64,000 nucleotides of DNA from Chlamydiota bacterium (lineage in GTDB: Bacteria; Chlamydiota; Chlamydiia; Chlamydiales; RGXB01), in NCBI GenBank assembly GCA_947494155.1, contig CANLTW010000004.1, forward strand, positions 18,273 to 82,272, written 5' to 3'. The position numbers and the translations under genes were made by a program. Under the pieces are notes generated by a model, which saw only the letters and a program-made list of their open reading frames with translations, made no database searches and was not told where the DNA came from. This document shows positions 3,304 through 41,827 of the stretch, in pieces (within the stretch, counting starts at the first letter, position 1; the number at the start of each line of letters is the position of its first letter).

Positions 3304-3822
3304 ATGAGGAAAGAGAAAGAGTATCTTCTAGAAGAGATCGCAGGTTCGATTCCTCAAGGATCTAATCTTGTTCTTGTCAATTACGGCAAAATGGAGCCCA
3401 ATAAGACTCACGATTTCCGTCGTAGGATTTCTAAAGTCGGTGGACGCTACCTAGTCGTAAAAAAACGTATTTTCCGCAAAGCTGCGGAAACAAAAGGGAT
3501 GAAAATAGACATTTCCCACCTTAAAGGAAATGTCGGTTTTGTTGTTGCTAATGATAATTTTCTTGAGGCGACCAAAGAACTTTATAGTTTCAGAACTGAT
3601 AATAAGGATCTGATCGAAGTTCTTGGTGGCCATTTTGAAGGGAGCTTCTGCTCACCAGCTCAAGTGGAATTAATATCTAAGCTACCAAGCCTACCAGAAA
3701 TGCGCGCACAATTCCTCGGAACGCTCGAGGCGCCGCTTTCACACACATTAGGTGCTATTGAGGCTGTATTGACCTCAGTCATCTACTGCTTGGACAACAA
3801 AGCTAAAGATCAACAATCATGA
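3304..3822 (+). CDS. rplJ: 50S ribosomal protein L10
   Basis: Between rplA and rplL; VVKKRIF and SKLPSLPEMRAQFLG are L10-like. Confidence 0.95.
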   Translation: MRKEKEYLLEEIAGSIPQGSNLVLVNYGKMEPNKTHDFRRRISKVGGRYLVVKKRIFRKAAETKGMKIDISHLKGNVGFVVANDNFLEATKELYSFRTDNKDLIEVLGGHFEGSFCSPAQVELISKLPSLPEMRAQFLGTLEAPLSHTLGAIEAVLTSVIYCLDNKAKDQQS

Positions 3823-3837
3823 TTTTGGAGAAGTAAC

Positions 3838-4236
3838 GTGAGTAAACATACTTTAGATCAACTCGTAGACGAGCTAAGCGCTCTTACTGTTCTTGAAATG
3901 GCTGAACTCAAAACCAAACTTGAAGATAAGTGGGGAGTCAAAGCATCAGCAGGTGTTGCTATGATGGCAGGACCAGCAGCAGGCGGAGCAGCAGCTCCAG
4001 CAGCTGAAGCTGAAGCACAAGAGTTCATCGTAACACTTGAGCCAGTTGATGCTGACAAGAAAGTAGCCGCGATTAAAGTTGTGCGTGAAATCACAGGTCT
4101 TGGCCTTAAAGAGGCTAAAGAGCTTGTAGAAGCAGCGCCAAAAGCGGTGAAAGAGCAGCTCAACAAGGCTGATGCACAAGCCCTCGCTAAAAAGTTTGAG
4201 GACGTGCAAATTAAAGTTACAGTTAAAGCAATGTAG
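3838..4236 (+). CDS. rplL: 50S ribosomal protein L7/L12
   Basis: LTVLEMAEL...WGV, Ala-rich hinge, [19 protein letters not shown] start after a GGAG SD. Confidence 0.99.
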
Positions 4237-4260
4237 TTTTTGTTTTAGTTAGTAGTTATA

Positions 4261-4300
4261 GGCAAAGCAAAAGAACACTGTTTTTTTGCTTTGCCTTATT
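4261..4300 (+). terminator. Hairpin (attenuator/terminator) between rplL and rpoB
   Basis: ggcaaagcaaaagaac-act-gtttttttgctttgcc long inverted repeat. Confidence 0.55.
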
Positions 4301-4338
4301 CAATTTTCTTTGGGAATCACTCAGATTCGGGGTTTTAA

Positions 4339-7300: not shown

Positions 7301-8115
7301 ATTCGAAGTACAAATCGGAAGTGGAGCATCTCAAAAAAGGGGATACCGAGCTTGAGGCAGGGGTAATCCGTCAGGTTAAAGTCTATATTGCGACAAAGCG
7401 CAAGCTGCAAGTCGGAGATAAGATGGCTGGACGTCACGGTAACAAAGGGGTGGTCTCCAAGATCGTTCCAGAGTGTGATATGCCATACCTTGAGGATGGA
7501 ACTCCAATCCAAATTATTTTGAACCCACTCGGGGTACCATCCCGTATGAACTTGGGGCAGATGTTGGAGACTCACTTGGGATTCGTAGCCAAGAAGAAGG
7601 GGATTTACGTAAAGAGCCCTGTCTTCGAAGGTTTCCCGGAAAAAGAGATTTGGAAAATGTTCGAGGATCTCGACATGGAACCCGATGGTAAGTCCTATCT
7701 TTATGATGGACGCACAGGGGAGCGCTTCGACAACAAGGCTGTAGTCGGATACATTTATATGTTGAAACTCTCACACCTTGTTGCGGATAAGATCCACGCT
7801 CGTGCGATCGGACCCTATTCTCTCGTTACGCAACAGCCTCTTGGAGGTAAAGCGCAACGGGGAGGTCAGCGTTTCGGTGAGATGGAGGTATGGGCGCTTG
7901 AAGCATACGGCGCTGCCAACCTTCTCCAAGAGATGCTCACGGTGAAGTCGGATGACGTTGACGGAAGAACACGCATCTACGCTTCGATCGTTAAAGGAGA
8001 TAATATTCTTCAGGCCGGTACACCTGAATCTTTCAACGTTCTTGTAAAAGAGATGCAAGGATTGGGATTGGATATACGCGGATTTGTTGAAACGCCAGTA
8101 GAGGCTCTAGCTTAA
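4339..8115 (+). CDS. rpoB: RNA polymerase beta subunit
   Basis: [23 protein letters not shown] and GGQRFGEME motifs. Confidence 0.99.
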
Positions 8116-8124
8116 AGGTAGAAA

Positions 8125-11100: not shown

Positions 11101-12318
11101 AAGAAGCTCCTTGCGACTAAGTCGATTGAGCCTCTCTCTACCTACCCTATCGAGCTTGGTACACAGCTTTTAGTTCGTGACGGAAGTGCCGTGAAAGCGG
11201 GATTGAAGTTTGCGCTCTGTGAGCAGCATAACATTCCGATTATCTGTGAAAAAGAGGGATTTGTCCGTTTTGATGACCTCGTTGAGGGGATCTCGACGCA
11301 AAAAACTGTCAATAAAGAGACGGGGCAAACCGAGATCTATGTGAAGCAGCACCGTGGAGAATTGCACCCGCAAATTTCCATCTACTCGGATGCTACCTTC
11401 AAAGATCTGATCGGTAGCTATGCTATACCTTCAGGTGCGTATCTTTCTGTTGAGGAGGCGGCTTTTGTGAAAGCAGGTCAAAAACTTGCGCGTCTTCCAA
11501 AGGGTGCCGTTACAACTAAAGACATCACCGGTGGTCTGTTCCGTGTTGCAAAGCTTTTTGAGGCTAGCAAACCTGCAGATGCCGCTGAAATTGCAAAGAT
11601 TGACGGTATTGTTCAGCTGAAAGGCGTACAAAAGAACAAACGTATTGTCGTCGTTGTCGATGAAGTTACCGGAGCCGAAGAAGAGCATCACATTCCGTTG
11701 ACCAAACACCTGATCGTCCAAAAAGGGGATCGTGTAGAAAAAGGGCAACAGATCACTGAGGGTGCAGTTCGTCTACAAGAGATTCTTGAGGTTTGCGGTG
11801 TCCGTGAGCTGCAGAAGTTCCTTGTAAACCAGGTACAAGAGGTATATCGTCTTCAAGGGGTAGACATCAACGATAAACACATTGAGATTATCGTACGTCA
11901 AATGCTCCAAAAAATACGCATTACCGATCCGGGTGATACGACATTCTTATACGGTGAGGATATTGATAAACGCACATTCCATGCGCAAAACAAGCAAGTG
12001 ATTGCCGAAGGTGGAAAACCTGCAGAAGCAGCTCCAGTCCTTTTAGGTATTACAAAAGCTTCTTTGGGCACGGAGTCCTTCTTCTCTGCAGCATCGTTCC
12101 AGGAGACTACAAAAGTCCTTACCGATGCCGCTTGCGAAGGAAAGAGCGATTATCTCCTCGACTTCAAGTCTAACATTATCGTAGGGCAACAGGTTCCTTC
12201 CGGAACAGGTCACCAGATTTATATTGATCGACTGAAAAAGAATTTGGGCGGAGACGATATCGAGACCCTCGATTTCGACTTTGATCGGGTTCCCGAGTTA
12301 GTTGCAACAGCCGGCTAA
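8125..12318 (+). CDS. rpoC: RNA polymerase beta' subunit
   Basis: [12 protein letters not shown] catalytic motif, N-terminal Zn finger, QLTMRTFH trigger helix. Confidence 0.99.
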
Positions 12319-12322
12319 AACT

Positions 12323-12350
12323 AAAGGCCTCTCTCTTGAGAGGCCTTTTT
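12323..12350 (+). terminator. Rho-independent terminator after rpoC
   Basis: aaaggcctctc-tctt-gagaggcc followed by a T-tract. Confidence 0.85.
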
Positions 12351-12435
12351 CATTCCAATCGATCTAGGGGTAACCCTAGACGCTTCAGACTAAAAAAAAT
12401 TCTAATAATTTTCCAGGTAAATCCCTCCCGTTTGG

Positions 12436-12464
12436 TTGCCAATAATTTAATATTTTACTATAAT
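12436..12464 (+). promoter_or_regulatory. Sigma66/70-type promoter for the 480-aa gene
   Basis: TTGCCA-17 nt-TATAAT, 31 nt upstream of ATG 12496. Confidence 0.65.
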
Positions 12465-12495
12465 TTCTATGATTTTGACTGAATTTGAGTAAAAT

Positions 12496-13938
12496 ATGAT
12501 CCTATCCGGCGCAGTGAGTGCATGTGGAGCTATAAATCTTTCCCCCGAGATAGATCTTTTGGGGGATTTAACTGCGCACAAGGCTGAATGTGCTAGTAAA
12601 TTGCCGACCACCGCCTATAGCCCTGAGTACTTTAGCCCGGTGGTGAAAGAGGGGATGTTCGGTAACCTCGGACAAAAGCCCTATTTAGAGGCTGCGGGTT
12701 CGGCGATAGATCTTGTTGCACAAAAGATCCTTAAAAAAGGGATAAAAACCGATTTTCATGGTCTTCTTGCCGATTTGAGTAAAATCCGCAAAGAAATAGC
12801 TCTAAGGACAAATACCCCTATGGCTGAGCGGTTTGGGGTGCGACGCAATGAAATGCATGCCCCCTTCAGTTATCCTTTTTTGATTCTAAGCGGCCAATAC
12901 ATACTTGCAGGGCTTAAGATATGCGAAAATGTATTTCCGCTCTTAGCTCAAGCTGCTTTGAAAGAGACCTCTGAGGAGGACATTTTTACAAAGCCTTTCC
13001 AGATGACCTGTCAAGATTCCCCCTTTTCTAGTTTTACTCTGGAGCTTTTGAGTCAGGAGGCTATCAAAGCTAGAGGACTCAATACAGTCCGTTGGGGTCG
13101 TGGCCTTAAAGGATATGCTGCCGATGCAATTGTAAATCCCTACGTCTATTCAGGTTTCTGTGAAGGTGGGGAGGAGAGCTATCAGCTCTTTTTGCGTAAT
13201 ACAAGACACCATTTGTCTGGTGAGGCCATGTTACTGTCTTTAACAAAAAAGATTTCTTTAAAAGATAGTTGGAATGCGATTGTTGAAAGAGAAAAAGAGA
13301 AGGATCGTGAGTTACTTGCGGCCAAATTTAAAGATTTTAAGCAACAGAAGCATTTGGTTGAGGGGGATGGATACCACGGAATCAAGCTAGCAAAAGCGTT
13401 TCACAATCTAGAGGAAGAGTTTAGTCAGCCGATTAATGAAGGGGAGGAACTCCCCCCTAAAACTCACTATCTTCTATTTTCGATGCGCCATGAGGTTTTG
13501 GGGAAATTGTACGCCACATCTAAGTTTGTCACCTGGCTAAATCGCACCCCGGGCGAGGATTTGGATGATACTTTAGACAGAGCATATGAAAATTCCCGTT
13601 GGCTTGTGATGCATCAGGACATATTCCTTTTGGAAGATACCCTTAAAGAATGCGAGAGACTATTCAGGGATGTTTTGAGTTGGGATCACTCCAAAGGGAC
13701 TTTAGAACTCATAGAGAAGATGGCTCCGTTAATCTATCTGCTGACCCATAGTCATAGAGATTCTAGAGGCACTGCGGCTATGAATGAATGGCTTGAGCGG
13801 GGGATCTACAAATCTTTTGGTTTTGATATGTTAGCCCTAAGCACGCGCATGATAGATCTGGATGCTTTTTGCAACACTTATCCCGTATATTTTGAAATTT
13901 ACAAAAAGTCTTTCAGCCTGGTGCCTATAGGAAGCTAA
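12496..13938 (+). CDS. AvrB/AvrC-like (Fido-fold) putative effector
   Basis: C-terminal YLLTHSHRDSRGTAAMNEW...IDLDAF resembles the AvrB-family RG(S/T)AAxxE...DLxAF signature (recognised from memory); long ORF with its own promoter. Confidence 0.55.
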   Translation: MILSGAVSACGAINLSPEIDLLGDLTAHKAECASKLPTTAYSPEYFSPVVKEGMFGNLGQKPYLEAAGSAIDLVAQKILKKGIKTDFHGLLADLSKIRKEIALRTNTPMAERFGVRRNEMHAPFSYPFLILSGQYILAGLKICENVFPLLAQAALKETSEEDIFTKPFQMTCQDSPFSSFTLELLSQEAIKARGLNTVRWGRGLKGYAADAIVNPYVYSGFCEGGEESYQLFLRNTRHHLSGEAMLLSLTKKISLKDSWNAIVEREKEKDRELLAAKFKDFKQQKHLVEGDGYHGIKLAKAFHNLEEEFSQPINEGEELPPKTHYLLFSMRHEVLGKLYATSKFVTWLNRTPGEDLDDTLDRAYENSRWLVMHQDIFLLEDTLKECERLFRDVLSWDHSKGTLELIEKMAPLIYLLTHSHRDSRGTAAMNEWLERGIYKSFGFDMLALSTRMIDLDAFCNTYPVYFEIYKKSFSLVPIGS

Positions 13939-13961
13939 TCGAGTATTTGCTAAATCTTTAC

Positions 13962-16586
13962 TTAAAAATAGGCATAGTCTTTGGGGATAAATTCATAGAA
14001 GCCCCCTTTAGTATATGATTTCAATTTGAAGTATTTTGTATTAAAAGAAATTCTGTGCCCATAAATAATCTCGATTTGGCTTTTTGCTTTTTCAGAAAAT
14101 TCAATAATCCCCTTTTCAGAGATATTAGGACAGTGGCGTATTTTAACATGTGTTAGGGATAGATCAAGAAGGCTGATGAGATCGCCGTCTGTGAAATCTT
14201 CCGCCTCAAGAGAAAAAAATACAAGCGGAAGTTTTTGAAGAAAATAAACATAAGAGACATCCCATTTTTTTAGCCCGATGAGTTCAAGTTCACTTAAGGG
14301 TTTATTTTGAAGGAATAAAAGACCACAAAGGTCGATCTTGCTGGCATTTCTCAAAGAAAGCGATTGGAGATGTCTGTTATTGTCTAATAGCGCAAGATGT
14401 GCATTTTCAACTGGTAAATCTATACAAAGGCTTCTGAGCTCTTTTTTTTGTAACACAGAGAACAAACGACTAGGGTCTACATGAATAGTCGTGAAATTAA
14501 GCTCGTTTAAGGGGTTTTTTTTAATCAAATCTAATAGGGTTTTTTCCTCAATATCGATCCCGCACAGATGGAGAATTTCTAGTGAGTCGAGATTTTGTAG
14601 TTGCTGGAAGCAGGAATCAATCCCATAGACATTCTCCAAAACAAGCTTTTTTAGTCGATTATTTTTGATCAAAGCAAGAAATACATCGGGATCTAAAAGG
14701 GAATCTTTAATTTTCAAGCTTACAAGGCTCGATAGTTTTTTTAGTAAAAAGGCAGGGGGAAAAAAGTTAGCTAGATTTCCCATCCATTCCAGATCTTTAG
14801 GTTGAGGGTGTTTTTTAAGAGTTTCAAGCAATTCCGATTCCCTTTGATGAGCAAAAAGAGAAAGCTTTTCCCCTTTGCAAGGCGCCCATAGTTTCAAAGA
14901 GTTCATTCTATCTATTATCAGAAATCCTTGCTTTAATTTTTCTTTCAGGGGTTGAAAAGCACTTGGTGTCACTAACTCCAATGGGTTTTGCTCCAACGGA
15001 TCGTCTTCTATGTGAAACACCTCATCAGGGGTGATTTTATAGGGCCCTTCTCTAAGAGCAATATCTGTGGAAAATCCCAAGTTTCCCAAGATTTGAAACC
15101 GTTGTTCCTTTTTTCTTGAAAGCGGATAGCCTAAACTGTGATGCACTACCGGTTTTTTTAAAAGATCAATAACCGTTGGGAAAATATCGATTTGAGAGGT
15201 GATAAACGAGTGCTTTTGCGGTTCAAGATCCCCTATTTTCAGAAAAACGCAGGGGACATGCACGTTTTCTTGGTAAACTTTCATCCGAATTTGGAGATTT
15301 TCGTGCTCTCCCATAGGTTGCCCATGATCTCCTAAGAGAATAAAAAGGGTATCTTTATACCAGGGCCTCTCTTGTGCTTTAAGAAAAAACTCCTCTAATC
15401 GCTTGTCTCCGACACGCAAAGCCTGCCTTAGTTTTTTTAAACCCTCTTTCTCCCCTTGTTCCTCCTCTTTGGGGACCTCCCAGGGGTGGTGACCGAATCC
15501 ACTGGATAAAAAACCAAAGAATGGCGATTCTGCGGTAGCTTTTTGATCCATCTGCTCAATGAGGTCTTGATAAGCTAATTGATCATCCACCATATAGGAA
15601 GAAAAAAACTTCCCCTTAGCTTGTTCAATATAATCTACTCGATTAGTGTAGCGATCAAAGACCTCCCCATCGCCTAGGTATTCTTTTTTGGCCTCTCCGT
15701 ATGTAGAGGTAAAATGGGCAGTATAGTAACCCAATTTTTTTAACATCTGGGGCATACCCGTAAGAGGTAGATCATTCAAGCTGTGATAGTGGAAATTTTC
15801 TTGAAAAGGGGGAATACCAAAAAGTGTGGATACCGCAGCAGGGCAAGAGATGGGGAAATTTGCGTAGAATTGATCGAAAAAAACCCCCTTATTGCTGATT
15901 TTTTTAAAAAAAGGGGCGCTATCAAGATCACGCATCCCCAGCGATTCCAAGAGAAGCACCACGATGTGAGGTTTTTCTTTTTTTAGTGAAAAAAGAGAGG
16001 GGGAAGAATAACCGGTGGTCTTCCTTAAAAAAGGATAGAACGGATCGATAAAAACCGATTTTTCCGATTCAAAAAGGAAAAAAGAGGGGAAAGAACTTGT
16101 GGTAGGGGGGGATTTCTTGTGTATCTTTTTAGGAAAAAATCTAAAAAAAAGATGCGTATGAAACCATAAAGAACCAGCTGAAGCTAAAAGAAGAAGGGGA
16201 TGAAACAATTTAAGCGCAAAAAAAGGGGTAGATCCCCATAGAATTAGTAGGGTGAAAAGTTGACTAAGCCCACGAAATCCTATCTCATAGAACACCGAAT
16301 CTTTTAAAGACCACAAACTTTTTTCAAACCATTGAAAATCGCTCCAAATTAGACCCCTTTTATAAATTCTACTGATCTGCAGATCTAAAAACATAAGGGT
16401 AAAATAGGCGAGTGACAGAATGCTGAAAAAAAATTTTTCGTAACCGACGGGTGCTAGAAAAGATAAACCTAAGATAAGTTGAATAAAGAAATAATCCTGT
16501 AAACCGCTGCTTAAATTTCCTAAAAAGGATCCCTTTTTTTGACTGCGTACCAAAAGAAGAGATAAGAAAAAAAATGCAGTAAACAT
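13962..16586 (-). CDS. LTA-synthase/sulfatase-family membrane protein with C-terminal leucine-rich repeats
   Basis: N-terminal TM segments; HIVVLLLES, GDHG and SQIDIFPT alkaline-phosphatase-superfamily motifs; the last ~290 aa show LxxLxL periodicity ending IRHCPNISEKGI. Confidence 0.75.
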   Translation of the reverse strand: MFTAFFFLSLLLVRSQKKGSFLGNLSSGLQDYFFIQLILGLSFLAPVGYEKFFFSILSLAYFTLMFLDLQISRIYKRGLIWSDFQWFEKSLWSLKDSVFYEIGFRGLSQLFTLLILWGSTPFFALKLFHPLLLLASAGSLWFHTHLFFRFFPKKIHKKSPPTTSSFPSFFLFESEKSVFIDPFYPFLRKTTGYSSPSLFSLKKEKPHIVVLLLESLGMRDLDSAPFFKKISNKGVFFDQFYANFPISCPAAVSTLFGIPPFQENFHYHSLNDLPLTGMPQMLKKLGYYTAHFTSTYGEAKKEYLGDGEVFDRYTNRVDYIEQAKGKFFSSYMVDDQLAYQDLIEQMDQKATAESPFFGFLSSGFGHHPWEVPKEEEQGEKEGLKKLRQALRVGDKRLEEFFLKAQERPWYKDTLFILLGDHGQPMGEHENLQIRMKVYQENVHVPCVFLKIGDLEPQKHSFITSQIDIFPTVIDLLKKPVVHHSLGYPLSRKKEQRFQILGNLGFSTDIALREGPYKITPDEVFHIEDDPLEQNPLELVTPSAFQPLKEKLKQGFLIIDRMNSLKLWAPCKGEKLSLFAHQRESELLETLKKHPQPKDLEWMGNLANFFPPAFLLKKLSSLVSLKIKDSLLDPDVFLALIKNNRLKKLVLENVYGIDSCFQQLQNLDSLEILHLCGIDIEEKTLLDLIKKNPLNELNFTTIHVDPSRLFSVLQKKELRSLCIDLPVENAHLALLDNNRHLQSLSLRNASKIDLCGLLFLQNKPLSELELIGLKKWDVSYVYFLQKLPLVFFSLEAEDFTDGDLISLLDLSLTHVKIRHCPNISEKGIIEFSEKAKSQIEIIYGHRISFNTKYFKLKSYTKGGFYEFIPKDYAYF

Positions 16587-26713: not shown

Positions 26714-27784
26714 TTAGCCGTTAAAAACACCCTCCATGATGTTTAATCTATCATTGGAGACTAAGCGGAAAGTAAAGGGTCGGTCAAAGCGAATTGTGTG
26801 CGAGGGTAAAGGTTTAACGCTTGTAGTGCGGAAAAGACCAGCCGTTACAAAAGCGGCCTTAACGCCCCCCTCTTCTAAGACAAAGAAGGTTTTTTGCACT
26901 ACGCTCGCAAGTTTACCTGCCTCTGTCTCCTTATTTAAGGGGATCCCCGTTTCCAAAAGTTTTTCAAGAAGCTCTTGGGTGTTGGAAAGGGAAAATTTAG
27001 GAAGTGTGATGTCGACATAGCAGGTTTTCCCTCTATGGCTCCCCTCGTAAAAAGCATCTTGTTCTAAAAGCTTTTCTATCGGGATACCCCCTTTTGGGAT
27101 GGAGAGTTGCAAGCGATAGGAGGAGCCTTCCAGCTCAAGCTCAATGAACTGCAAAAATCCATTTTCATAGTAGCGGACTCTTTTCATCCCCCACATCATA
27201 TCGATCTCTTTTTTTTCCTTTGTTGAGGTCTGGAATACCTTTTTTTTAGTGTGGCTAGGATCAAAAGGGTCATCGAATTTCCCGATAAACGAACCCGCAT
27301 TGACTGCTACAAGCCCCTCTTTAGGGAGGTCTCTTCTCTGTTCAAAGATTTTGGGTATCATCCCATCGGTCTTTTCCTTCACAAAATCATTCAGCCTCTC
27401 GACGATGTAAGGATCATCTAGATTTAGACCTAAACAGTGTAACAGCTCTAAATGCTCGTTTAGTAAACTAAGGTCGATAGTCGATGCACAGCAGTTTCCT
27501 AGTTTAAGCTGAGGATGGTTCTCAAACATGGATAAAAGATAACGTGTAACACTCTCTTTATTTTTTGTTCCAAAGACCTCTTGAAGAATGATCTCTTGTT
27601 CTTCGGGCCTAAAAAGGGGATAGATGATTCCTACGAACTGATCTATACTTAAGGGGGCAATTAAAGAGCTTTTTTGCTCATGTTGGTAAAGCTTTTTTAA
27701 TATGGAGGTCTCTTTTGAGGCGACGGGAAGAACAGTTAGAATGTTTTCGTCCTCAATCTGCATTTGTGGATTGTCCACGATCAT
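26714..27784 (-). CDS. Serpin-family protein
   Basis: NDFVKEKTDGMI, VNAGSFIGKF..PFDPSHT, LPKFSL, hinge EEGGVKAA, FDRPFTF. Confidence 0.88.
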   Translation of the reverse strand: MIVDNPQMQIEDENILTVLPVASKETSILKKLYQHEQKSSLIAPLSIDQFVGIIYPLFRPEEQEIILQEVFGTKNKESVTRYLLSMFENHPQLKLGNCCASTIDLSLLNEHLELLHCLGLNLDDPYIVERLNDFVKEKTDGMIPKIFEQRRDLPKEGLVAVNAGSFIGKFDDPFDPSHTKKKVFQTSTKEKKEIDMMWGMKRVRYYENGFLQFIELELEGSSYRLQLSIPKGGIPIEKLLEQDAFYEGSHRGKTCYVDITLPKFSLSNTQELLEKLLETGIPLNKETEAGKLASVVQKTFFVLEEGGVKAAFVTAGLFRTTSVKPLPSHTIRFDRPFTFRLVSNDRLNIMEGVFNG

Positions 27785-27892: not shown

Positions 27893-28549
27893 TTATTCCT
27901 TAATCAATTCATCGATATCGTCATACCGCACATGCTGAATATCGCTGTAGCCACCGCGCTGAAAGACTAGGTTTTTTGTGTAAAAAGCGAGGTCATTTTG
28001 TAAAAGGGTATCCCAGGCAATATCAATGATGGTCTCATCTGGGGCATTTTTTGCAAAAGGGATGGAAAGAAGCTTTTGGTAGCAACTTTCAAAACAGGCT
28101 AAAAGTTTTGGGATGTAATGGGAATTTACCAAGTAGGCATGAGCCCGTCTAGAGCTTTTAACGCGTGATATTCCTGCAAAAGAGGAGGGTTCACTTTTTT
28201 TTATCTGCCCGCCAAGAAAAAAAATGTCGTACGTTTTGATTCTGTCGTAAAAGTACCCCAGGTGGGTCTCAATTTCATCATTATTGGCAAGAAAAAAGGC
28301 ATCATCTTCTAAAATTAGAACCTCTTTGAGACCCCTTTCTTGGGCAAGTTTTAGAGCTTTAATATGGCTTAAAGCACAGCCTCTATGCCCGTTAAGCACA
28401 TCATGCTCTCCCTCGATTCTCTCGATTTTTTCCTCTTTTACGCCCAGCTTTTTAAGCTGAGAAAGAATCAAAGCATTCCGATCGGCTCGATGACTTAGGT
28501 TGATGTAGAAGATTTTTTCTAACCTGTTGAGTCCTTTGCAAGTGCTCAT
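27893..28549 (-). CDS. Glycosyltransferase family 25 (paralog 1)
   Basis: FYINLSHRADR, GCALSH, VLILEDDA, AHAYLV, Q.GGYSDI. Confidence 0.85.
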   Translation of the reverse strand: MSTCKGLNRLEKIFYINLSHRADRNALILSQLKKLGVKEEKIERIEGEHDVLNGHRGCALSHIKALKLAQERGLKEVLILEDDAFFLANNDEIETHLGYFYDRIKTYDIFFLGGQIKKSEPSSFAGISRVKSSRRAHAYLVNSHYIPKLLACFESCYQKLLSIPFAKNAPDETIIDIAWDTLLQNDLAFYTKNLVFQRGGYSDIQHVRYDDIDELIKE

Positions 28550-28569: not shown

Positions 28570-29214
28570 TTAAGACAAATATGTGGTATAGTCATCATGG
28601 GTGAAGTGCTGAATATCACTGTATCCACCCCTCTGGTAGGCGAAAATTTTGGTAAATAGCACAAGATGCGTTTCGAAAAGATGATCCCATGCTCTGTCTA
28701 TAGCCAAATCGTGGACCTGATTGAATGTAGGGATTGTTTGTAATCTCAAATAGGCCTTCTCAAAGACCTCTAAAATTGTAGGAATAAAGTGGTCTTTCAC
28801 AGCATAGGCGTGTGCTAATCTGGCCTTTCTTGCCCGAAAGATCCCCTCAATTTGACTTTTTTGATATTGCTCCACTCTGGCCCCTAGAAGAAGCATATCG
28901 TAGGTTTGTGCATGTTGAAAGAGTAGATGCAGGTGGCTTTCAATCTCGTTATTGTCGCAGGAAAAGAAGGCATCATCTTCCAGAATAAGAACCTCCTTAA
29001 GTCCCAGTTTTTTTGCAAGCTTAAGGGCATCGATATGGCTCAGAGCACAACCTCTATGACCATTTAAAACATCTAAATTTCCTTCAATCCGTACGATTTT
29101 ATTAGGATCAACGCCTAATTTGTCTAATTCTTGCAAAAGCAAACTTTTGCGATCGGTACGGTGGTCTAAGTTTATATAAAATATTTTTTCAAACCGATTT
29201 AAGCCCTTAGACAT
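28570..29214 (-). CDS. Glycosyltransferase family 25 (paralog 2)
   Basis: FYINLDHRTDR, GCALSH, VLILEDDA, AHAYAV, Q.GGYSDI; clearly paralogous to its neighbour. Confidence 0.85.
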   Translation of the reverse strand: MSKGLNRFEKIFYINLDHRTDRKSLLLQELDKLGVDPNKIVRIEGNLDVLNGHRGCALSHIDALKLAKKLGLKEVLILEDDAFFSCDNNEIESHLHLLFQHAQTYDMLLLGARVEQYQKSQIEGIFRARKARLAHAYAVKDHFIPTILEVFEKAYLRLQTIPTFNQVHDLAIDRAWDHLFETHLVLFTKIFAYQRGGYSDIQHFTHDDYTTYLS

Positions 29215-30766: not shown

Positions 30767-30881
30767 GTCAAATAGTAAAATAAATGTTATAGCTCTAGCC
30801 TGTTAAAAGGGGGGTAAACGAAAAAAGAGCTAGCATTTAGGCGTTTTATGAGGGGGCTAGCGCCCCCTTTGGAAAATTAAC

Positions 30882-31823
30882 CTATTGGGTTTTTTGTTGT
30901 TTGATTTTTTCAAAAACTTCAATCAGAGCCGCATGAATCTCTTTTAATTCAGGAAACTTGCCTTGAAGCTTTGTCACATCAAGCTCATTATTGGAACGCT
31001 TGGCTTTAAGGATCTGGTTTTGCTCCTCTATAGAGAAGTTTTCCCAGGTGAAATCGGGATCGACGTACTCTTTATAAAGCGACAGGATCTCGTTGTGGGA
31101 AATAACGCCGGGATTGGTGAAATTGTAATTTCCCGTCTCGTTTTGTCGAGCAAGTTCTATTGCCAGCGGAATCATCTCATCGAGGACAGTCATACTGTTG
31201 GCCACATTGATCACCTTGGAGTATTTAGTGATTTTTGTGATAAAATTTCTCGGGGATAGATCGCTGGAGATAGGCATTCTTAAACGGAGGTTGAGGACAT
31301 TGGGGTAATAGGTAAGAAGTTTATCTAGCACCACCTTTGTTGAAGAGTAAAAAGAGCCAAAGAAATTAGGAGCATCCTCCTCAGTAAATCCAATCGATGA
31401 GCCAAGCGGGTGTGTCTCGTCGTATTCATAAATACAGCCGGTACCAAAATTGGTCATATGAAGACCCTTCAGATAAGCGATATCGGCTAGGTTCAAAGCC
31501 CCGATGATGTTGGATCGTAGGGTTTGCTCTTTATTTGATTCGCACCAGTCGACATTCGGCACCCCAGTAACACCAGCAGCGTTGATGATATGGGTCGGCT
31601 GAGTCTTTTCGATTTCATTCAAGATCTCCTCCCGATTTTCCAAACGGGATTCGGCAGGGATGCAGACAAAGCCCCCCTTTTGAAGCTCTTCAAGGATCAT
31701 ATTACCGATCCAACCGGTTTTGCCCCCAAAAACAAGAAAGCGTGTCTCCTCTTTTGACATGGGTGAGAGCGTCGCCGATAAAAATCGGCAACAAACCAAA
31801 AAAGATAAAGCAAAGTATTTCAT
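30882..31823 (-). CDS. Plant NRS/ER (UER1)-type NDP-4-keto-6-deoxyglucose 3,5-epimerase/4-reductase with signal-peptide-like N-terminus
   Basis: GKTGWIG, NAAGVTGVPNVDWCE, TGCIYEYD, GSFYSSTK, LRLRMPISSDL..RNFITKI, NFTNPGVISHNEIL and RSNNELD closely match plant NRS/ER. Confidence 0.88.
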   Translation of the reverse strand: MKYFALSFLVCCRFLSATLSPMSKEETRFLVFGGKTGWIGNMILEELQKGGFVCIPAESRLENREEILNEIEKTQPTHIINAAGVTGVPNVDWCESNKEQTLRSNIIGALNLADIAYLKGLHMTNFGTGCIYEYDETHPLGSSIGFTEEDAPNFFGSFYSSTKVVLDKLLTYYPNVLNLRLRMPISSDLSPRNFITKITKYSKVINVANSMTVLDEMIPLAIELARQNETGNYNFTNPGVISHNEILSLYKEYVDPDFTWENFSIEEQNQILKAKRSNNELDVTKLQGKFPELKEIHAALIEVFEKIKQQKTQ

Positions 31824-31839
31824 AGTGAAAACTCCAGAT

Positions 31840-32964
31840 TTATTGATAGCTAATTTCTTTATCAGATACGTAGACAGGGTGGGAGGAATTTTCGTAGAGG
31901 TTTATACAGAAATCGGGGTTTCTAAGATACCACTTCAGAGTTTCGCTTAGCCCCTCTTCCAAGCTGATGATTGGCGACCAGCCCAAAAGTTTTTGAGCCT
32001 TAGTATTTCCGCCAATATGGCAATCTACTTGACCGGGGCGGTCCGAAATTTTCAAAACGGGGTAGTGGGGCTTCTGTAAAATCTCTAAAATCGAATGTAC
32101 GATGGCATTTACAGAGACAGCTTTATTTGTTCCGATATTGATTTCTTGCCCTTTTATTTGTGAAAAATCGGGTTTGTGCAGAGCCATATCGATCGCTCGT
32201 GCTGTATCCAGAGTGTGTACCCAGTCCCTAGATTGCTCCCCGCTTCCGTGGATTTTTATGGGTTTATTGAGAATGATGGAGGCGATAATACGAGGAATCA
32301 ATTTTTCTACATGCTGGTTTGGACCATAGTTATTAAAGGGTCGAAGGATGACTACCGGCAAATCGTAGGTGCAGTAGTAGGAGTATACAAGGCGATCTGC
32401 TCCGGCTTTGGCAGCGGCATACGGGCTTCGTGGATTTAAGGGATGATCCTCATTCATCGGTTGCGTTTCAGCCGTTCCATAAACTTCAGAGGTGGAAATA
32501 TGGATAAACCGCTCCACCTTCTCCCGATTTTTATTAAGGGCTACAAGTAAAGAGCGTGTCCCTAAAATGTCGGTTTCCAGAAATTTAGCGTCTGATACGA
32601 TGCTCCTTGTGACATGAGATTCTGCAGCAAAATGGACCACATAATCGCTTTGCCCCATAAGAGAATTAACGATATCAAAGTCGTTAATATTAGCATGCAC
32701 GAATGTAAAGCGGTCTGCGCTGCGGATTTCTTGGGAGATATTCTCTAACGATCCTGCATAGGTTAAGGCATCTAATACAATAAATCGGTATTCGGGATAC
32801 TTATCGTACATGTATTGTAAAAAGTTGCTGCCGATAAATCCTGCCGCTCCAGTAATAAGAACAGTTTTATTATTCTCATTAGAGGATTCATCAGCTGAAA
32901 AAAGTGGGTTTATGGAAAAAAACCCTATTAGGGTGATTCTTAGGATAAATTTTGAGAAGTTCAA
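31840..32964 (-). CDS. NDP-glucose 4,6-dehydratase (RmlB-like) with signal-peptide-like N-terminus
   Basis: ITGAAGFIGSN, DALTYAGS, HFAAESHV, NPRSPYAAAK, NNYGP. The TTG start has a GAGG SD. Confidence 0.88.
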   Translation of the reverse strand: MNFSKFILRITLIGFFSINPLFSADESSNENNKTVLITGAAGFIGSNFLQYMYDKYPEYRFIVLDALTYAGSLENISQEIRSADRFTFVHANINDFDIVNSLMGQSDYVVHFAAESHVTRSIVSDAKFLETDILGTRSLLVALNKNREKVERFIHISTSEVYGTAETQPMNEDHPLNPRSPYAAAKAGADRLVYSYYCTYDLPVVILRPFNNYGPNQHVEKLIPRIIASIILNKPIKIHGSGEQSRDWVHTLDTARAIDMALHKPDFSQIKGQEINIGTNKAVSVNAIVHSILEILQKPHYPVLKISDRPGQVDCHIGGNTKAQKLLGWSPIISLEEGLSETLKWYLRNPDFCINLYENSSHPVYVSDKEISYQ

Positions 32965-33059
32965 TTTGGTGCCTCTAATTGTTATAATGTTTCAGAACCT
33001 AGGGAAAAGAAAAACTTAAAATAACTATTTCGGTCTTTCTAATTCAATTTTTTTATTTC

Positions 33060-35138
33060 TCAAACTAGCTGTGGATATCTTTTTTCTAAAATCGCCATAA
33101 CCAGATTTAGTTCCTGGTCGATATTTTCCATGAAAGCGGCAAAAACTCCCTTAAAAGATATGTCCCAATCCAGTATCAGAGGGTGGCTCATAAACTCCTG
33201 GATTTCGCGAAGGAATCGATCGACCTTTTCGAGCGTTTTTTTCCGTTCGACAGCAGGCAAGTTTTCAAAATAGTCGTTTTTTGGATTTGTAAAGTCATAT
33301 TTAGATAAAAGAGCCCTCTCTTTTGCAGCAATTTTTGCAAAAAATAGCCTATGCTTCCCCTCAAGAAGCTCTATTTTACAATCGCTACGCACATGAGTAA
33401 GAAGATGAATCCATTCAGCGGATGTATCTCCGATCTCTATCGCTTCCAGTTCTTTGATCTCAAGAAAAGGGAGTAGAGCCGCTTTTTGGATTGGTTCCAA
33501 AAAGGGATATAAACCTAAAAGCGACTTCCTCGTTTCCAGGGAATTCCAATAATAAAAGAGACCTAATGCATACTCTTCTCTCTCTTCAGTCAGATAACTG
33601 ACAGCTTCTCGAACATCAAAAAGGTAATACGCTGTTGATTTGGAAATTTTTAAAGGTTTCCCCGATTTGGGGTTTTTGATAACCCCCCGGTCGGTGGTAA
33701 CCTCCACGTCTGAAAAATCGGAAATAGAGGATCCAATAGACCTTTTTTCCTCCTCAGGTGGTTCTAAAAAAGCCTGTGTTGTAGAGATTTTACTCGCCTG
33801 GGAAAAGATACTTTTTAGAAGAAACTGCACTTTTTCATCAAAAGCCCTTTTTTCCAATGGGTTAATTTGCCCCCCACAGAAGCGTATTAGGAGGTGTTTG
33901 TTATCAGGAGATAAAAAAGAGTAGCTGCTTAAAAAAAAGGGGGCAAGTTCAAAAAGGTGTTCTCTTCTAAAGAGGCGATTGGTAAAAGCAAACAGATCGA
34001 GTGCCGATTCTTTTAAAAGAAGTTTTGAAAGCTCTTTTGAGGTGCTTAACTCATACAGAAATGCCTCGGGCTCCTTTAGGCGTAGGCAGTTTTCGAGCGC
34101 TCTTTGAATGGAGGGGGAATCTCGATGGAAAATCCCCTCAATCAGATCGACAAAAAGTTTATGCATCGTTCCGATTAGGCGAATATCTACGCCATACGTA
34201 TTTACCCCTTTTCGCTCGTCTTTATCTTGAATCAACAGGAATCGGATGATGTTACACATAGAGGTATCTCTATAGAGGAGACTTAACGCACGAGAATTAA
34301 GATCAGAAAACGAAAACCCTTCGATCTCGCTCAAGGCATCTAAAATCATGCAAAAAGGGTCTGACAGAAAATGGTAATAGAGGGAAATTTTACCGCTTTT
34401 TAGCGGTTTCAAAGCGATAAGGGGATTGTCTTGAAGCTTTTGGTGAACGTATTCTTTGGCTTGCCTGTTCTGCTGAAAAAGATCGGCTATAAAATGGGGC
34501 TGACGGATGAAAAAATCGATAAAGGAGTCTTCGATCATAAAGGCCTCCAAAAAGCGGCTTGTATACTGGTTGCAGAAGCGCAGGATATAGTTAAAGCTCT
34601 CGATGATTTCCTGGTCGGTGATAAGGGATGGGTCTGGATCGTTTAAAAGCTGTAAAAGGGGCGCCATTATGGAGCAAATTTTAGGAGGGATATCAAAAAA
34701 TCGGTTGAGAATAGGATCATTCCAGTAGAAAATAGAGTCCAGATCCTGGATGCTGAAGGAGGTTAGGGGATTGAACCCCAGCCTTTTTAAATCCGGATTT
34801 TCAAAAAGGGTGGGATTTGAGCCATAAAGAGTTAAAATAAAGGGTAGGGAAGAGGATTTTTCTTTATCTTTAAGCAAGATGCGCTGCCCCATGAGTTGCG
34901 TAAAAAAAGATCTCGTGTCCATCTGATTTTCAGGAATTTTTGTGATTTTTTTGTGAATAACCAGATCCTCCAAAGGCTCGTATGCTCTTTGCTGTTGTGC
35001 TAAGGGTTTGAATATCTCTAAAAGACTTTCCAAATTGTGTTGAGAAACCGCTTCGCAATCTATTGGGTGAATGGGTTGTGATGTCGGAATGGATGGTGTG
35101 CTCATTAAGAAACCTTTGTTTTTTAGCGGCAAACACAT
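33060..35138 (-). CDS. Large helical hypothetical protein, possible secreted effector
   Basis: 692-aa ORF; likely start at MSTPSIPTSQP (Ser/Thr/Pro-rich); Leu/Phe-rich amphipathic sequence with no recognised domain. Confidence 0.75.
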   Translation of the reverse strand: MCLPLKNKGFLMSTPSIPTSQPIHPIDCEAVSQHNLESLLEIFKPLAQQQRAYEPLEDLVIHKKITKIPENQMDTRSFFTQLMGQRILLKDKEKSSSLPFILTLYGSNPTLFENPDLKRLGFNPLTSFSIQDLDSIFYWNDPILNRFFDIPPKICSIMAPLLQLLNDPDPSLITDQEIIESFNYILRFCNQYTSRFLEAFMIEDSFIDFFIRQPHFIADLFQQNRQAKEYVHQKLQDNPLIALKPLKSGKISLYYHFLSDPFCMILDALSEIEGFSFSDLNSRALSLLYRDTSMCNIIRFLLIQDKDERKGVNTYGVDIRLIGTMHKLFVDLIEGIFHRDSPSIQRALENCLRLKEPEAFLYELSTSKELSKLLLKESALDLFAFTNRLFRREHLFELAPFFLSSYSFLSPDNKHLLIRFCGGQINPLEKRAFDEKVQFLLKSIFSQASKISTTQAFLEPPEEEKRSIGSSISDFSDVEVTTDRGVIKNPKSGKPLKISKSTAYYLFDVREAVSYLTEEREEYALGLFYYWNSLETRKSLLGLYPFLEPIQKAALLPFLEIKELEAIEIGDTSAEWIHLLTHVRSDCKIELLEGKHRLFFAKIAAKERALLSKYDFTNPKNDYFENLPAVERKKTLEKVDRFLREIQEFMSHPLILDWDISFKGVFAAFMENIDQELNLVMAILEKRYPQLV

Positions 35139-35301: not shown

Positions 35302-35739
35302 TTGAAGAAAGTGATTTTAGCAATAGTTCTCCTTTTGAGCAGTTGTCAAAAGCAGCAAATAGAGGTGGAGCATTTTGCAGTGAGTAAAAAAAATCTCCCC
35401 TCAACATTCACCCTTTCACCCGATCCTCAACAGGAAGAGGGGTATTTTGGGGAAATTTTTTTGATCCATTACACTCTTACTGACGAGCAACTGGGGTCAA
35501 AAACTCCTGTCATTGCCCAATTTTTGCTTGAAGATCTTCAGGAATTTCAAACCGAATTCATCCCAACCCAAAAAAGGGGCTTCGAGCGGTTAGAGTGGAT
35601 CAATGAGTCGTTTCAAAAGCATGGAGCTGTGATTGGCTATCAGGTCTGTTACCAGGACTTTTGTTTGAAAAGCCCCCTTTTCAGAAAAATGATCGAAGTT
35701 GATCATAAAAGGCTCGCCAAAGAAAAAAATGGGAAATAA
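35302..35739 (+). CDS. Lipoprotein, likely homolog of the chlamydial gene between atpK and valS
   Basis: Lipobox LLSSC; LPSTF..SPDP motif; syntenic position. Confidence 0.7.
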   Translation: MKKVILAIVLLLSSCQKQQIEVEHFAVSKKNLPSTFTLSPDPQQEEGYFGEIFLIHYTLTDEQLGSKTPVIAQFLLEDLQEFQTEFIPTQKRGFERLEWINESFQKHGAVIGYQVCYQDFCLKSPLFRKMIEVDHKRLAKEKNGK

Positions 35740-39745: not shown

Positions 39746-41827
39746 ATGCATACAGTATCAAATTTTTTGGCACCAGTCGAGGATCCAACCCACCACCCCT
39801 CTTACATACACTATAGAAACCGCGTTCTCGATGGGGAAACGGATCAGTTAAGAAAACTTTTTGAAATTATTGCTTACACCGGAACGAGTATCCCGTCTGT
39901 ACTAGAGAAAGATCGTGTTCTTTACGAAGAGATCCAAAATAGGATGGGATCAAGATGGGTCTGTTTGGCTACGGAATCCTCTATCGCCTCCCAGATGACA
40001 AAGGATTTTTCTGTCCCCGTCTGGAAAAATAGGAAGTTTGAATTGCTTAAAATGGATTTGGAGGACGATCAATGGGAATTCTTTAGCTCACTGGAGGCCT
40101 ATTTGGAGGACGAAGGGATCGAGGGGCTAAAAAAAGTTTTTCAAGATCCGCAACTCAAAAGTTTTCTTGCAAATCATCCTCAGGAGTGGATTCTTTCTGT
40201 TTATAAGATGTTTCCTGAGGCCAAAGAGACGATTGAAGAAAACTTTCACATCTCTTTAAACGTTGAGGCTAGAAAAAGCCATGAATGGAAACAGGCATTA
40301 GAGGCATTATATGACAATCTTCTACAAAATCCAGAGAATACGGCCTCATTACTTAGGAGTTTTTTGAGGCAAACAGGCGAGGGGGGATTAGAGAATCTTT
40401 TTTTAGAAAAGCCCATACAAGATCTGCTTTTCCAAAATGAGGAGGTTTTTTGGATTCCAGAGGTTCTTAAAGAGTTTCCTCAGGCATGGGAGAAAATTGA
40501 GGCTCAAATCTCCAAACTCTGGCTGACCAACCCAGATCTGTTACAGTTTCTTGAAAGAGATAGCGACTGGTTCAAAGCCCTCAAAAAGGGGGCGTTTACC
40601 ACTACACCGCTGCTTTTTCTTTCCGATTACGCAAAAAAGGGAAAAATATCCTATCAAAAACTTGATCCGGGAGTATTGCATAAGATTTTTTTGCAAGAGG
40701 CTTATCATCCTATTTTGCATAGTGACAAAAACTATCCATGGATCCCTTTTTACTTATCCCATCTCCCGGAAAATGTGCAGCTGGTAGAGGCTTTTATCGC
40801 AAAAAAATGGAAAGACGATCCTGCATTCTTCGAGGTAGTGCGAGAATCCAACCTGTGGTTAGAGGCTTTAGTGAAGACGCTCCGTCAGTCTCGAGAACCC
40901 TCTGCGTTTTTGTTTTTTGTCGATTTAATTAGACTATCTTGTGATTTGAAAGGGTTGAGTCCGGAAAAAACCAGACATTTTCTTTTGTACCTTCCCGATT
41001 GGATGTTAGCTAAATTTGGGAAAGCGCCCTTTTATAAAGATAAAAACGACTCATTTCGCGAGGTTATCAAAGACCTTTGTGAAAAGACAACGCAAAGGAC
41101 TTTAGAGGAAAAAGCGTTGTCCATCGAGTGGTGCAGGCTGGTCAAAAATCTCCATCCGATAGCCCTCATTGAGCTTTCTAAAATGGTGCCCGCGCACCAG
41201 CTTGCCTCAAGATGGATCCCTTCGATGGAGCTTCATCAGCTATTATTACTCATCCCTTTACTGGAGCTGGCCCCTTTCAAAACTGTTTTTAATGAGCTTT
41301 TTTTAGAGGAGCATCCAAGAGCCTTGATGTTTGCGACCGAGATGCAAAAGGAGTTTTACGCTAATGTATTCGCCTACGCTTTTGATCAGGACTTTCAGAA
41401 CACTTTTCCACTACAAGAGCAAACGATAGAGGCGCTTAACGGCTTTCTTTTGAGAAAAAGGACCGCTCTTAAGTCTATTCAAGCCCTTTATAGGAAAAAA
41501 CCTCAAAATATTGCCCAGTGCCTCTCTTTGCTTGAGGGGAAACTGGAGCAGATTGAGAGGGGAGTATCACCCCTTTTCTTGCAGGAGATCCGTTTAGAGG
41601 AATTGGTGCAAGAGTGGAAAAATACTTCTCTATCCGAATCCCAAAAAGTCTCGTTCGAGGTCCCTTTGAAACCGGTAGATAGCACACGCCCCTTGGAGTT
41701 AGAAAATGTCTCTTCAACGGAAAGCGAGCATCCTGAGGGGCATTTTTTCTCCTCCAAGGAGACTGTGATTCTCCCGAAAGTCTCCATCCCGCGACTCCCT
41801 TTGGAGCGGTTAGAACGGGACTCTTAG
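39746..41827 (+). CDS. Helical-repeat hypothetical protein
   Basis: 693-aa ORF with three degenerate ~90-95 aa internal repeats. Confidence 0.75.
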   Translation: MHTVSNFLAPVEDPTHHPSYIHYRNRVLDGETDQLRKLFEIIAYTGTSIPSVLEKDRVLYEEIQNRMGSRWVCLATESSIASQMTKDFSVPVWKNRKFELLKMDLEDDQWEFFSSLEAYLEDEGIEGLKKVFQDPQLKSFLANHPQEWILSVYKMFPEAKETIEENFHISLNVEARKSHEWKQALEALYDNLLQNPENTASLLRSFLRQTGEGGLENLFLEKPIQDLLFQNEEVFWIPEVLKEFPQAWEKIEAQISKLWLTNPDLLQFLERDSDWFKALKKGAFTTTPLLFLSDYAKKGKISYQKLDPGVLHKIFLQEAYHPILHSDKNYPWIPFYLSHLPENVQLVEAFIAKKWKDDPAFFEVVRESNLWLEALVKTLRQSREPSAFLFFVDLIRLSCDLKGLSPEKTRHFLLYLPDWMLAKFGKAPFYKDKNDSFREVIKDLCEKTTQRTLEEKALSIEWCRLVKNLHPIALIELSKMVPAHQLASRWIPSMELHQLLLLIPLLELAPFKTVFNELFLEEHPRALMFATEMQKEFYANVFAYAFDQDFQNTFPLQEQTIEALNGFLLRKRTALKSIQALYRKKPQNIAQCLSLLEGKLEQIERGVSPLFLQEIRLEELVQEWKNTSLSESQKVSFEVPLKPVDSTRPLELENVSSTESEHPEGHFFSSKETVILPKVSIPRLPLERLERDS

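Follow-up and report, generated by a model that had tools for sequence, protein, structure and literature searches.

Two-gene operon for a leader-bearing 4,6-dehydratase and an NRS/ER-type epimerase-reductase in a Chlamydiota bacterium: a candidate exported L-rhamnose pathway

The operon and its two enzymes

A 64,000-nt stretch of the genome of a Chlamydiota bacterium (GCA_947494155.1, contig CANLTW010000004.1), referred to here as the window and used for all coordinates, carries a two-gene operon for a predicted rhamnose pathway. Its products are an RmlB-like nucleoside diphosphate (NDP)-glucose 4,6-dehydratase and an NRS/ER-type NDP-4-keto-6-deoxyglucose 3,5-epimerase/4-reductase, both preceded by hydrophobic N-terminal leaders (Table 1). 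Based on these leaders and on those of the homologs, the operon is read, with moderate confidence, as a Sec-exported two-enzyme NDP-L-rhamnose synthase module which feeds extracytoplasmic glycosylation.

An earlier, sequence-only reading of the window had placed a dehydratase and an NRS/ER-like gene 16 nt apart, and the open reading frame (ORF) coordinates and family matches agree with this: the spacer lies between the dehydratase TAA (31842-31840) and the epimerase ATG (31823-31821). The leaders which it quoted for the two enzymes were read exactly as given, and the Shine-Dalgarno (SD) sequences which it noted were located upstream of both starts. Its statement that the dehydratase has no alternative start was borne out as well: after the TTG start, no further ATG, GTG or TTG occurs in frame before the GAAGFIGS Rossmann motif is reached, and 5' of the TTG the frame is closed by a TGA at a distance of 10 codons. 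For the epimerase, a start at Met22 had been named beforehand as the finding which would remove the leader. This start was rejected, as no purine (SD-like) run precedes Met22 and the close relatives P0003 and P0004 carry Thr at this position.

Table 1. Features of the dehydratase/epimerase-reductase operon (window positions)
Feature	Position	Strand	Basis
RmlB-like NDP-glucose 4,6-dehydratase (predicted), 374 amino acids (aa), TTG start	31840..32964	-	ORF and family matches
NRS/ER-type NDP-4-keto-6-deoxyglucose 3,5-epimerase/4-reductase (predicted), 313 aa, ATG start	30882..31823	-	4QQR and 7JID matches
Dehydratase leader, residues 1-24, MNFSKFILRITLIGFFSINPLFSA; followed by acidic stretch DESSNENNK	32893..32964	-	leader of the same character in 115/120 homologs
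Epimerase-reductase leader, residues 1-17, MKYFALSFLVCCRFLSA	31773..31823	-	leaders of homologs; passes the stricter rule
SD-like AGAGG, 7 nt 5' of the dehydratase TTG	32976-32972	-	sequence reading
SD-like GGAG, 8 nt 5' of the epimerase ATG, within the 16-nt spacer	31835-31832	-	sequence reading
G+C-rich hairpin directly behind the epimerase stop	30851..30868	-	-19.8 kcal/mol, z -2.6

The epimerase-reductase was aligned with the solved Arabidopsis NRS/ER (UER1, 4QQR) at 3.2e-111, residues 23-309 falling on 9-296 with ~62% identity over 287 residues, and with the mimivirus UDP-L-rhamnose synthase L780 (UGER, 7JID) at 1.5e-72. Residues T128, C130, Y159, K163 and K197 align to T113, C115, Y144, K148 and K183 of 4QQR and are, together with the Rossmann segment G33-G40, invariant columns in the epimerase alignment. 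In NRS/ER these residues are assigned to an S/T-Y-K reductase triad and to a Cys/Lys pair for epimerisation. The similarity to the Arabidopsis enzyme and to the C-domain of plant RHM proteins is full-length, and the Rossmann motif, Y-x-x-x-K and Cys/Lys pair are shared. This clearly assigns the second enzyme to the NRS/ER type of plants and giant viruses, presumably with the bifunctional 3,5-epimerase/4-reductase activity of plant NRS/ER. The plant enzyme is leaderless and cytosolic, whereas the clade of the window enzyme is leader-bearing and is encoded in bacterial operons.

The dehydratase matched PF16363 (GDP_Man_Dehyd/Epimerase) at 1.8e-74. Its closest solved structures are bacterial and archaeal RmlBs, the best being bacterial RmlB 6BI4 (1.5e-67), and the alignment with them runs end to end; mimivirus R141 (UGD, 6VLO) matched at 8.7e-51. 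The fold and most motifs of the RmlB (TIGR01181) of the bacterial RmlABCD pathway are shared, including NNYGPxQ, EKLIP and PYxxxK, which are retained throughout the dehydratase clade, and the Y-x-x-x-K at Y182/K186. The enzyme differs from RmlB in a family score below the cut-off, in the catalytic motif T-S-E (S157-T158-S159-E160) instead of T-D-E, in its leader of ~30 residues and in a C-terminal tail. Unlike in RmlABCD, no RmlA, RmlC or RmlD partners were found for it. Because the RmlB motifs are retained and an NRS/ER enzyme is the operon partner, 4,6-dehydratase is kept as the most likely activity in spite of the Ser at the Asp position.

The dehydratase shares 38.7% identity with the N-domain of an RHM-type protein (P0241), 35% with the canonical RmlB of a chlamydia (L097) and 40% with a Woesearchaeota enzyme. 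In a 67-row dehydratase tree, one branch with a support of 100 parts 31 leader-clade rows from 36 others, and this branch coincides with the catalytic change from Asp to Ser. The description of the operon as a plant/eukaryote-type two-gene pathway therefore stands for the two-enzyme route and for the NRS/ER type of the second enzyme, but not for the dehydratase, which is 35-40% identical to all groups alike. A plant origin of the dehydratase was accordingly rejected in favor of a clade of its own.

The inventory of the remaining genome is based on an assembly of 1.41 Mb which is 97.6% complete, and all genome-wide negatives refer to it. No RmlC (PF00908) was matched anywhere in the genome, nor was RmlA or GalU found, the sole PF00483 protein being GlgC. 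The absence of rmlA and rmlC claimed for the window thus extends to the whole assembly, which does not encode a canonical RmlABCD set. UDP-glucose pyrophosphorylase (UGPase) gave no real match in the genome, only a partial, GlmU-like one of 26 bits; no GMD was found over the cut-off, and TatC gave no match. Since RmlA, GalU and UGPase are all missing, no known cytoplasmic route to UDP- or dTDP-glucose was found. Genes for signal peptidase I, three secretins and three to four NTT nucleotide transporters are present.

A second, leaderless set of three genes was identified on contig C10 (L104, G000:C10:3000-12000; 3449-5650, minus strand). It encodes an RmlB of 314 aa which starts MKKILVTGGAGFIG, scores 393.2 bits with TIGR01181 (above the cut-off) and carries an S-D-E motif; a nucleotidyltransferase of 159 aa, HxGH-type and similar to RfaE domain II/cytidylyltransferases at a score below the cut-off; and an NRS/ER-like protein of 265 aa, starting MITLIGHGYIG, which is 32% identical to the window enzyme. 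The three genes might provide a 6-deoxyhexose pathway in the cytoplasm, in which an unusual enzyme activates the sugar. The organism would therefore not be limited to an exported route, and predicted leaderless and leader-bearing versions of both families are made by one organism.

Conservation of the leaders and distribution of the genes

For each enzyme, leaders were counted in its nearest 120 database relatives, which in the case of the epimerase are 58-99% identical to it. A hydrophobic leader of at least 14 aa precedes the first beta strand in 110/120 epimerase relatives (112/120 under a slightly different rule), and 115 of the 120 dehydratase relatives have a leader of this kind and length as well. 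The leader sequences are mutually unrelated across the relatives while the architecture is constant. The n-region is net-positive in 103 epimerase and 110 dehydratase relatives, and in both sets the uncharged stretch is typically 16 residues long (median; ranges 8-26 and 9-26, respectively). Among the epimerase relatives the first charged residue is directly preceded by Ala in 44/112 and is itself Asp or Glu in 71/108. Lipobox-like leaders numbered six in the epimerase set and five in the dehydratase set. In the window itself, the dehydratase leader has K5 and R9 followed by ITLIGFFSINPLF and the epimerase leader has K2 followed by YFALSFLVCC, so that both are predicted to have the n/h/c architecture of signal peptides. 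A twin-arginine (RR) motif was found in neither leader.

The argument for the leaders rests on controls within the families. Among representatives of more distant clusters, formed at 50% identity, only 7/124 have a leader; in the others the N-terminus lies 1-5 residues ahead of the strand, or further domains are attached. Archaeal neighbor dehydratases start MKILVTG and are leaderless, and the canonical chlamydial RmlC, RmlD and RmlB proteins of 10 loci start directly. Based on this contrast between conserved character across Chlamydiota and Dependentiae and leaderless distant relatives, the leaders are taken from their sequences to be real features with signal-peptide character and not start-codon artefacts, in line with what had been proposed.

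A scan of species-representative genomes returned 472 stretches encoding relatives, and the best 79 loci of the 472 were grouped. Loci L002-L053 (51-89% identity) belong to Chlamydiota, including Parachlamydiaceae, Simkania and Rhabdochlamydiaceae, and to Dependentiae/Babeliales/Vermiphilus, together with a few metagenome-assembled genomes which are unclassified or labeled 'Pseudomonadota' and two archaeal records (L042, L043). Loci L054-L080 (39-48% identity) are from Peribacteria, Gracilibacteria and DPANN archaea. The dehydratase gene is present in 32 of the 52 related loci, in 27 of which it is the adjacent same-strand neighbor of NRS/ER.

In a FastTree of 185 NRS/ER rows, the leader-bearing rows of Chlamydiota and Dependentiae form one clade of 54 rows with a support of 93. 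Fifty-two of these were called 'SP', another combines SP with a fusion at the C-terminus, and the leader of the last one, L049, is weak; the label 'ext' given to locus rows outside the clade is not meaningful, as their upstream residues come from stop-to-stop frames. In a quick IQ-TREE search with 88 rows, the 37 leader rows sampled are all cut off from the remainder by one branch (support 97), along with seven long-branch fused rows whose N-termini look RmlC-like. The next nearest rows to the leader clade are RHM-type fusions, for which the label 'eukaryote-like' refers to their architecture alone. Five rows (P0287, P0314, P0311, P0383 and P0371) hold long-branch NRS/ER domains behind ~170-250 extra residues; the start of the P0287 extension looks RmlC-like, and IQ-TREE places this group of rows within the leader clade or next to it.

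Across 400 evenly sampled Chlamydiota genomes (212 genera), the NRS/ER gene was found in 15 genomes (12 genera), including 4/4 of the genus studied here. Canonical RmlC is encoded by 279/400 genomes and by 0/4 of this genus, and it accompanies NRS/ER in 11/11 positive genomes outside the genus, which argues against redundancy of the two routes. A 2011 survey gives only four bacterial homologs of the RHM C-domain, all of them from Verrucomicrobia (PMC3220709).

Proposed compartment of the pathway

In the mechanism proposed for the Sec-exported module, the dehydratase with bound NAD+ would oxidise, dehydrate and re-reduce NDP-glucose to NDP-4-keto-6-deoxyglucose. The substrate would most likely be host UDP-glucose, because the genome yielded no gene for making UDP- or dTDP-glucose. 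NDP-beta-L-rhamnose would then be formed by the NRS/ER-type enzyme through epimerisation at C3 and C5 and NAD(P)H-dependent reduction at C4. The Sec-type leaders would direct both enzymes to the periplasm, or to the lumen of the vacuole after further secretion, and the periplasm of an energy parasite would act as a passage for host nucleotides, NAD(P)(H) and nucleotide sugars. The product would be used by Leloir-type glycosyltransferases with leaders, the genes of which lie in other parts of the genome, and an exported UDP-glucose dehydrogenase could, as a speculation, renew NADH locally. The data show the structure of the genes, the families of the enzymes, the catalytic residues kept in the second enzyme, the conserved leaders, the gene content of the genome and the occurrence in RNA libraries; from these we infer that the leaders are cleaved and the proteins exported, and likewise which nucleotide carrier is used, where the reductant comes from, which compartment is finally reached and what the acceptor is.

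In bacteria, the synthesis of nucleotide sugars and Leloir-type glycosyl transfer take place in the cytoplasm. As activated sugars and NAD(P)H are lacking outside the cell, glycans are normally built on lipid carriers. To our knowledge, no characterised bacterium carries out NAD(P)H-dependent nucleotide-sugar chemistry outside the cytoplasm. Rossmann-fold, dinucleotide-dependent sugar enzymes outside the cytosol are found in the Golgi lumen, where UXS and GAE are type II proteins with a eukaryotic signal-anchor. The glucose-fructose oxidoreductase of Zymomonas is exported in folded form, carrying its NADP, by the twin-arginine translocation (Tat) system. The window leaders, unlike the Zymomonas enzyme, have no twin arginines and no TatC was found in the genome, so Tat export with a pre-bound cofactor was rejected; export would therefore proceed only via Sec and the dehydratase would bind NAD+ after export.

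The route by two separate proteins is shared with mimivirus R141 and L780. The mimivirus enzymes differ from the window pair in being leaderless, in being encoded by genes which are not adjacent and in acting in the host cytoplasm or virus factory; they are described as accepting both UDP- and dTDP-sugars (PMC9614988). A precedent for nucleotide-sugar enzymes acting outside the cytoplasm on a host donor is provided by the glycogen enzymes of C. trachomatis (Gehre et al. 2016, PMC4829429). In contrast to the window pair, these are equipped with type 3 signals and no signal peptide, make glycogen and have no need of NAD(P)H. The module is plausible in an energy parasite because host nucleotides and cofactors cross the periplasm and because of this C. 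trachomatis precedent.

Several observations weigh against the exported module. The leaders of the window enzymes are weaker than most of the clade: -1 is Ala in both, while -3 is Phe in the dehydratase (putative SA/D site) and Leu in the epimerase. A lenient leader rule flags 396/1127 ORFs of the genome (35%), which is too permissive; it was replaced by a stricter home-made signal-peptide rule which passes 128/1127 ORFs (11.4%), and under which the epimerase passes and the dehydratase narrowly fails (hydrophobic core 2.06, threshold 2.2). The activity and substrate of the dehydratase are, by its sequence, less certain than its name suggests, because Ser replaces the catalytic Asp (S/T-S-E) in 121/121 clade members, as opposed to T-D-E in 36/36 non-clade sequences, and because the TIGR01181 score of 311.7 bits is under the cut-off of 365.1. 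T-S-E is used by GDP-mannose 4,6-dehydratases and UDP-glucuronate decarboxylases. In a giant-virus review the Asp is counted among the residues of the dehydration reaction, the typical set of which, Asp125 included, is kept by R141 (PMC9614988). The weakest link of the mechanism is the reductant, as NRS/ER needs stoichiometric NAD(P)H, the dehydratase would have to bind NAD+ after export, and free reduced dinucleotide would have to be available in the periplasm; mimivirus L780 requires NADPH (PMC9614988).

Transcription was approached with contigs from four lake-water RNA libraries, which cover both genes in part at 95-100% identity. Three of them cross the dehydratase leader and end at 32984-32998 (20-34 nt upstream of the TTG), and one (31713-31947) spans the 16-nt gene junction. 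Their leader variants are R9K and F15V only, with charge and hydrophobicity kept. As RNA libraries can hold DNA and the contigs show neither strand nor transcript ends, a further point on the negative side, they give only a weak hint that the dehydratase leader is transcribed; contig depth and the uncovered parts of the window are uninformative on the level of expression.

The non-canonical -3 residues allow for an uncleaved anchor, by which both enzymes would stay attached to the inner membrane with their catalytic domains in the periplasm, similar to the type II nucleotide-sugar enzymes of the Golgi. Both the F-S-A and L-S-A positions at -3/-1 and an uncharged stretch which reaches 26 residues in some homologs would agree with such signal-anchors. 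The median of this stretch, however, is just 16 residues with the c-region included, and the enrichment of Ala before the first acidic residue (44/112) and the lipoboxes of some homologs are typical of cleaved leaders. Tethering is considered rather unlikely.

After passage by Sec, the enzymes might also be released from the cell, through type 2 secretion or in vesicles, and act as effectors in the vacuole lumen or host cytosol, either providing UDP-rhamnose for secreted transferases or draining UDP-glucose. Three secretins are encoded, NADPH and UDP-glucose are plentiful in the host cytosol, and C. trachomatis enzymes secreted into the vacuole are described as using host UDP-glucose (PMC4829429). 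That precedent, however, involves type 3 signals and not signal peptides. The sequence data agree with the periplasm as well as with a place beyond it, and the homologs with a lipobox favor membrane retention in some lineages. Secretion of the enzymes as effectors is judged to be somewhat less probable than tethering.

That the two proteins are ordinary cytoplasmic enzymes, with leaders which are untranslated, non-functional or form an N-out helix facing the cytoplasm, is improbable. The internal Met22 of the epimerase and the weak dehydratase leader point in this direction, as does the general knowledge that such chemistry is cytoplasmic in characterised bacteria. The dehydratase, however, has no alternative start and Met22 is not conserved; the character of the leaders is kept over two phyla despite unrelated sequences; and the positive n-region followed by an acidic mature N-terminus fits an N-in/C-out orientation, with leaderless paralogs present in the same genome.

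Least probable of all is that the first enzyme is not a 4,6-dehydratase but acts on the product of UDP-glucose dehydrogenase so that the pair makes another sugar: the Ser for Asp in 121/121 members, the low TIGR01181 score, the T-S-E of UDP-glucuronate decarboxylases and a leader-bearing UDP-glucose 6-dehydrogenase in this genome and four related loci would suit it, yet the enzyme is far closer to RmlB (1.5e-67) than to ArnA/UXS models (~1e-17), keeps NNYGPxQ and EKLIP, shares T-S-E with GDP-mannose 4,6-dehydratases as well and is the conserved operon partner of NRS/ER, the known substrate of which is the dehydratase product.

For the Sec-exported rhamnose module, the enzymes are of known kinds and the compartment is the new element. 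No earlier description of an export-tagged rhamnose pathway was found in the part of the literature covered by the search. If the module is as proposed, the periplasm or vacuole would be treated as an extension of the host cytosol, with direct glycosylation taking place there, in two phyla of protist parasites. This would bear on the use of host metabolite pools by energy parasites, on the surface cover of environmental chlamydiae and Dependentiae and on the origin of the eukaryotic NRS/ER enzyme.

Other leader-bearing sugar enzymes and neighboring genes

Further sugar enzymes with leaders were identified elsewhere in the genome. A cluster on contig C1 (L082, G000:C1:194000-212000; 7237-15989) encodes a leader-bearing, TuaD-like UDP-glucose 6-dehydrogenase (464 aa, 520 bits), a GT4 glycosyltransferase, two GH130/beta-mannosyltransferase (BMT)-like proteins and a Galactosyl_T-like protein, all of them leader-bearing, and is adjoined by an EamA-family transporter. 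Leader-bearing UDP-glucose 6-dehydrogenases are also encoded in four related loci. On contig C10 (L081, G000:C10:27000-43000; 4645-12192, minus strand) lie eight genes in a row, all with hydrophobic leaders, among them an RXYLT1_C/GT47-like protein, a DUF6492 protein and three paralogs of an unannotated family. The top matches of a medium-confidence AlphaFold model of this family (pLDDT 69.7) are all fucosyltransferases (Arabidopsis FUT1, FUT8, POFUT1 and NodZ; E 5e-6 to 6e-4, TM 0.35-0.53), suggesting a predicted fucosyltransferase fold; a profile search against PDB sequences gave nothing meaningful. A protein kinase and a dual-specificity phosphatase come after the eight-gene run.

In the loci of Dependentiae and Chlamydiota, neighbors belonging to FkbM, CmcI/rhamnosyl-O-methyltransferase, TylF, GT6 (3e-49), GT61, GT32-like and UDP-glucose dehydrogenase families are nearly all leader-bearing, with counts such as 22/24, 13/14 and 10/11 under the lenient rule. 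The housekeeping neighbors (fumarase, ValRS, MutL, DAHP synthase, serpin and GT25) have a leader score of 0. As the lenient rule flags 35% of ORFs, the counts for neighbor families are indicative only and it is the contrast which counts.

A more extensive reading, tentative and clearly less probable than the exported module, is that environmental Chlamydiota and Dependentiae possess a Golgi-like extracytoplasmic Leloir system in which the whole tool-kit is Sec-exported and uses host UDP-glucose, NAD(P)(H) and S-adenosylmethionine. The tool-kit would comprise the 4,6-dehydratase, NRS/ER, UDP-glucose dehydrogenase, eukaryote-type glycosyltransferases of the fucosyltransferase-fold, GT6, GT61 and GT47-like kinds, and sugar O-methyltransferases. 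As part of the same tentative reading, the NADH made by an exported UDP-glucose dehydrogenase and the NAD(P)H demand of NRS/ER could be coupled locally, and the invariant change from Asp to Ser might be an adaptation to the periplasmic or vacuolar compartment.

The fucosyltransferase-fold family was also considered for a tie to the pathway by co-occurrence, and no claim is made. It is present in 8/15 NRS/ER-positive and 80/385 negative Chlamydiota genomes, a weak enrichment among genomes which are not independent, with one of the eight being a fragment with stop codons.

Leader-bearing GT61 genes lie directly 3' of NRS/ER in Simkania (L021 9728-10891) and Rhabdochlamydiaceae (L027 8896-10116), and ~1 kb upstream of the dehydratase in a close relative (L003 4709-5884); by BLAST, no GT61 homolog was found in the genome which holds the window. 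Locus L041 (9894-10676) encodes a leader-bearing GT6 of the blood-group type (PF03414, 3.3e-49). In Dependentiae loci GT6 and sugar O-methyltransferases of the TylF and CmcI types cluster with the rhamnose genes.

Behind the operon, the G+C-rich hairpin of Table 1 is a possible terminator common to the operon and the convergent fumarase gene. It is absent from the list of the consensus terminator scan because no U-tract lies behind it, and the number of sites returned by the consensus promoter/terminator scan was not above that for shuffled sequence.

Several further genes surround the operon in the window. Tandem leaderless GT25 paralogs of 218 and 214 aa (27893-28549 and 28570-29214, minus strand) stand beside the operon in its closest relatives (L002-L004) too, and a leaderless serpin of 356 aa (26714-27784, minus strand; PF00079, 1.6e-32) is kept in L002-L005. 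Directly upstream of the operon a protein of 692 aa with no Pfam match is encoded (33060-35138, minus strand), which is kept in L002 at 78% identity; a separate orphan of 693 aa lies at ~39746-41827. A protein of 145 aa (35302-35739, plus strand) with a clear lipoprotein-type leader, MKKVILAIVLLLSSC, is kept in L003-L006.

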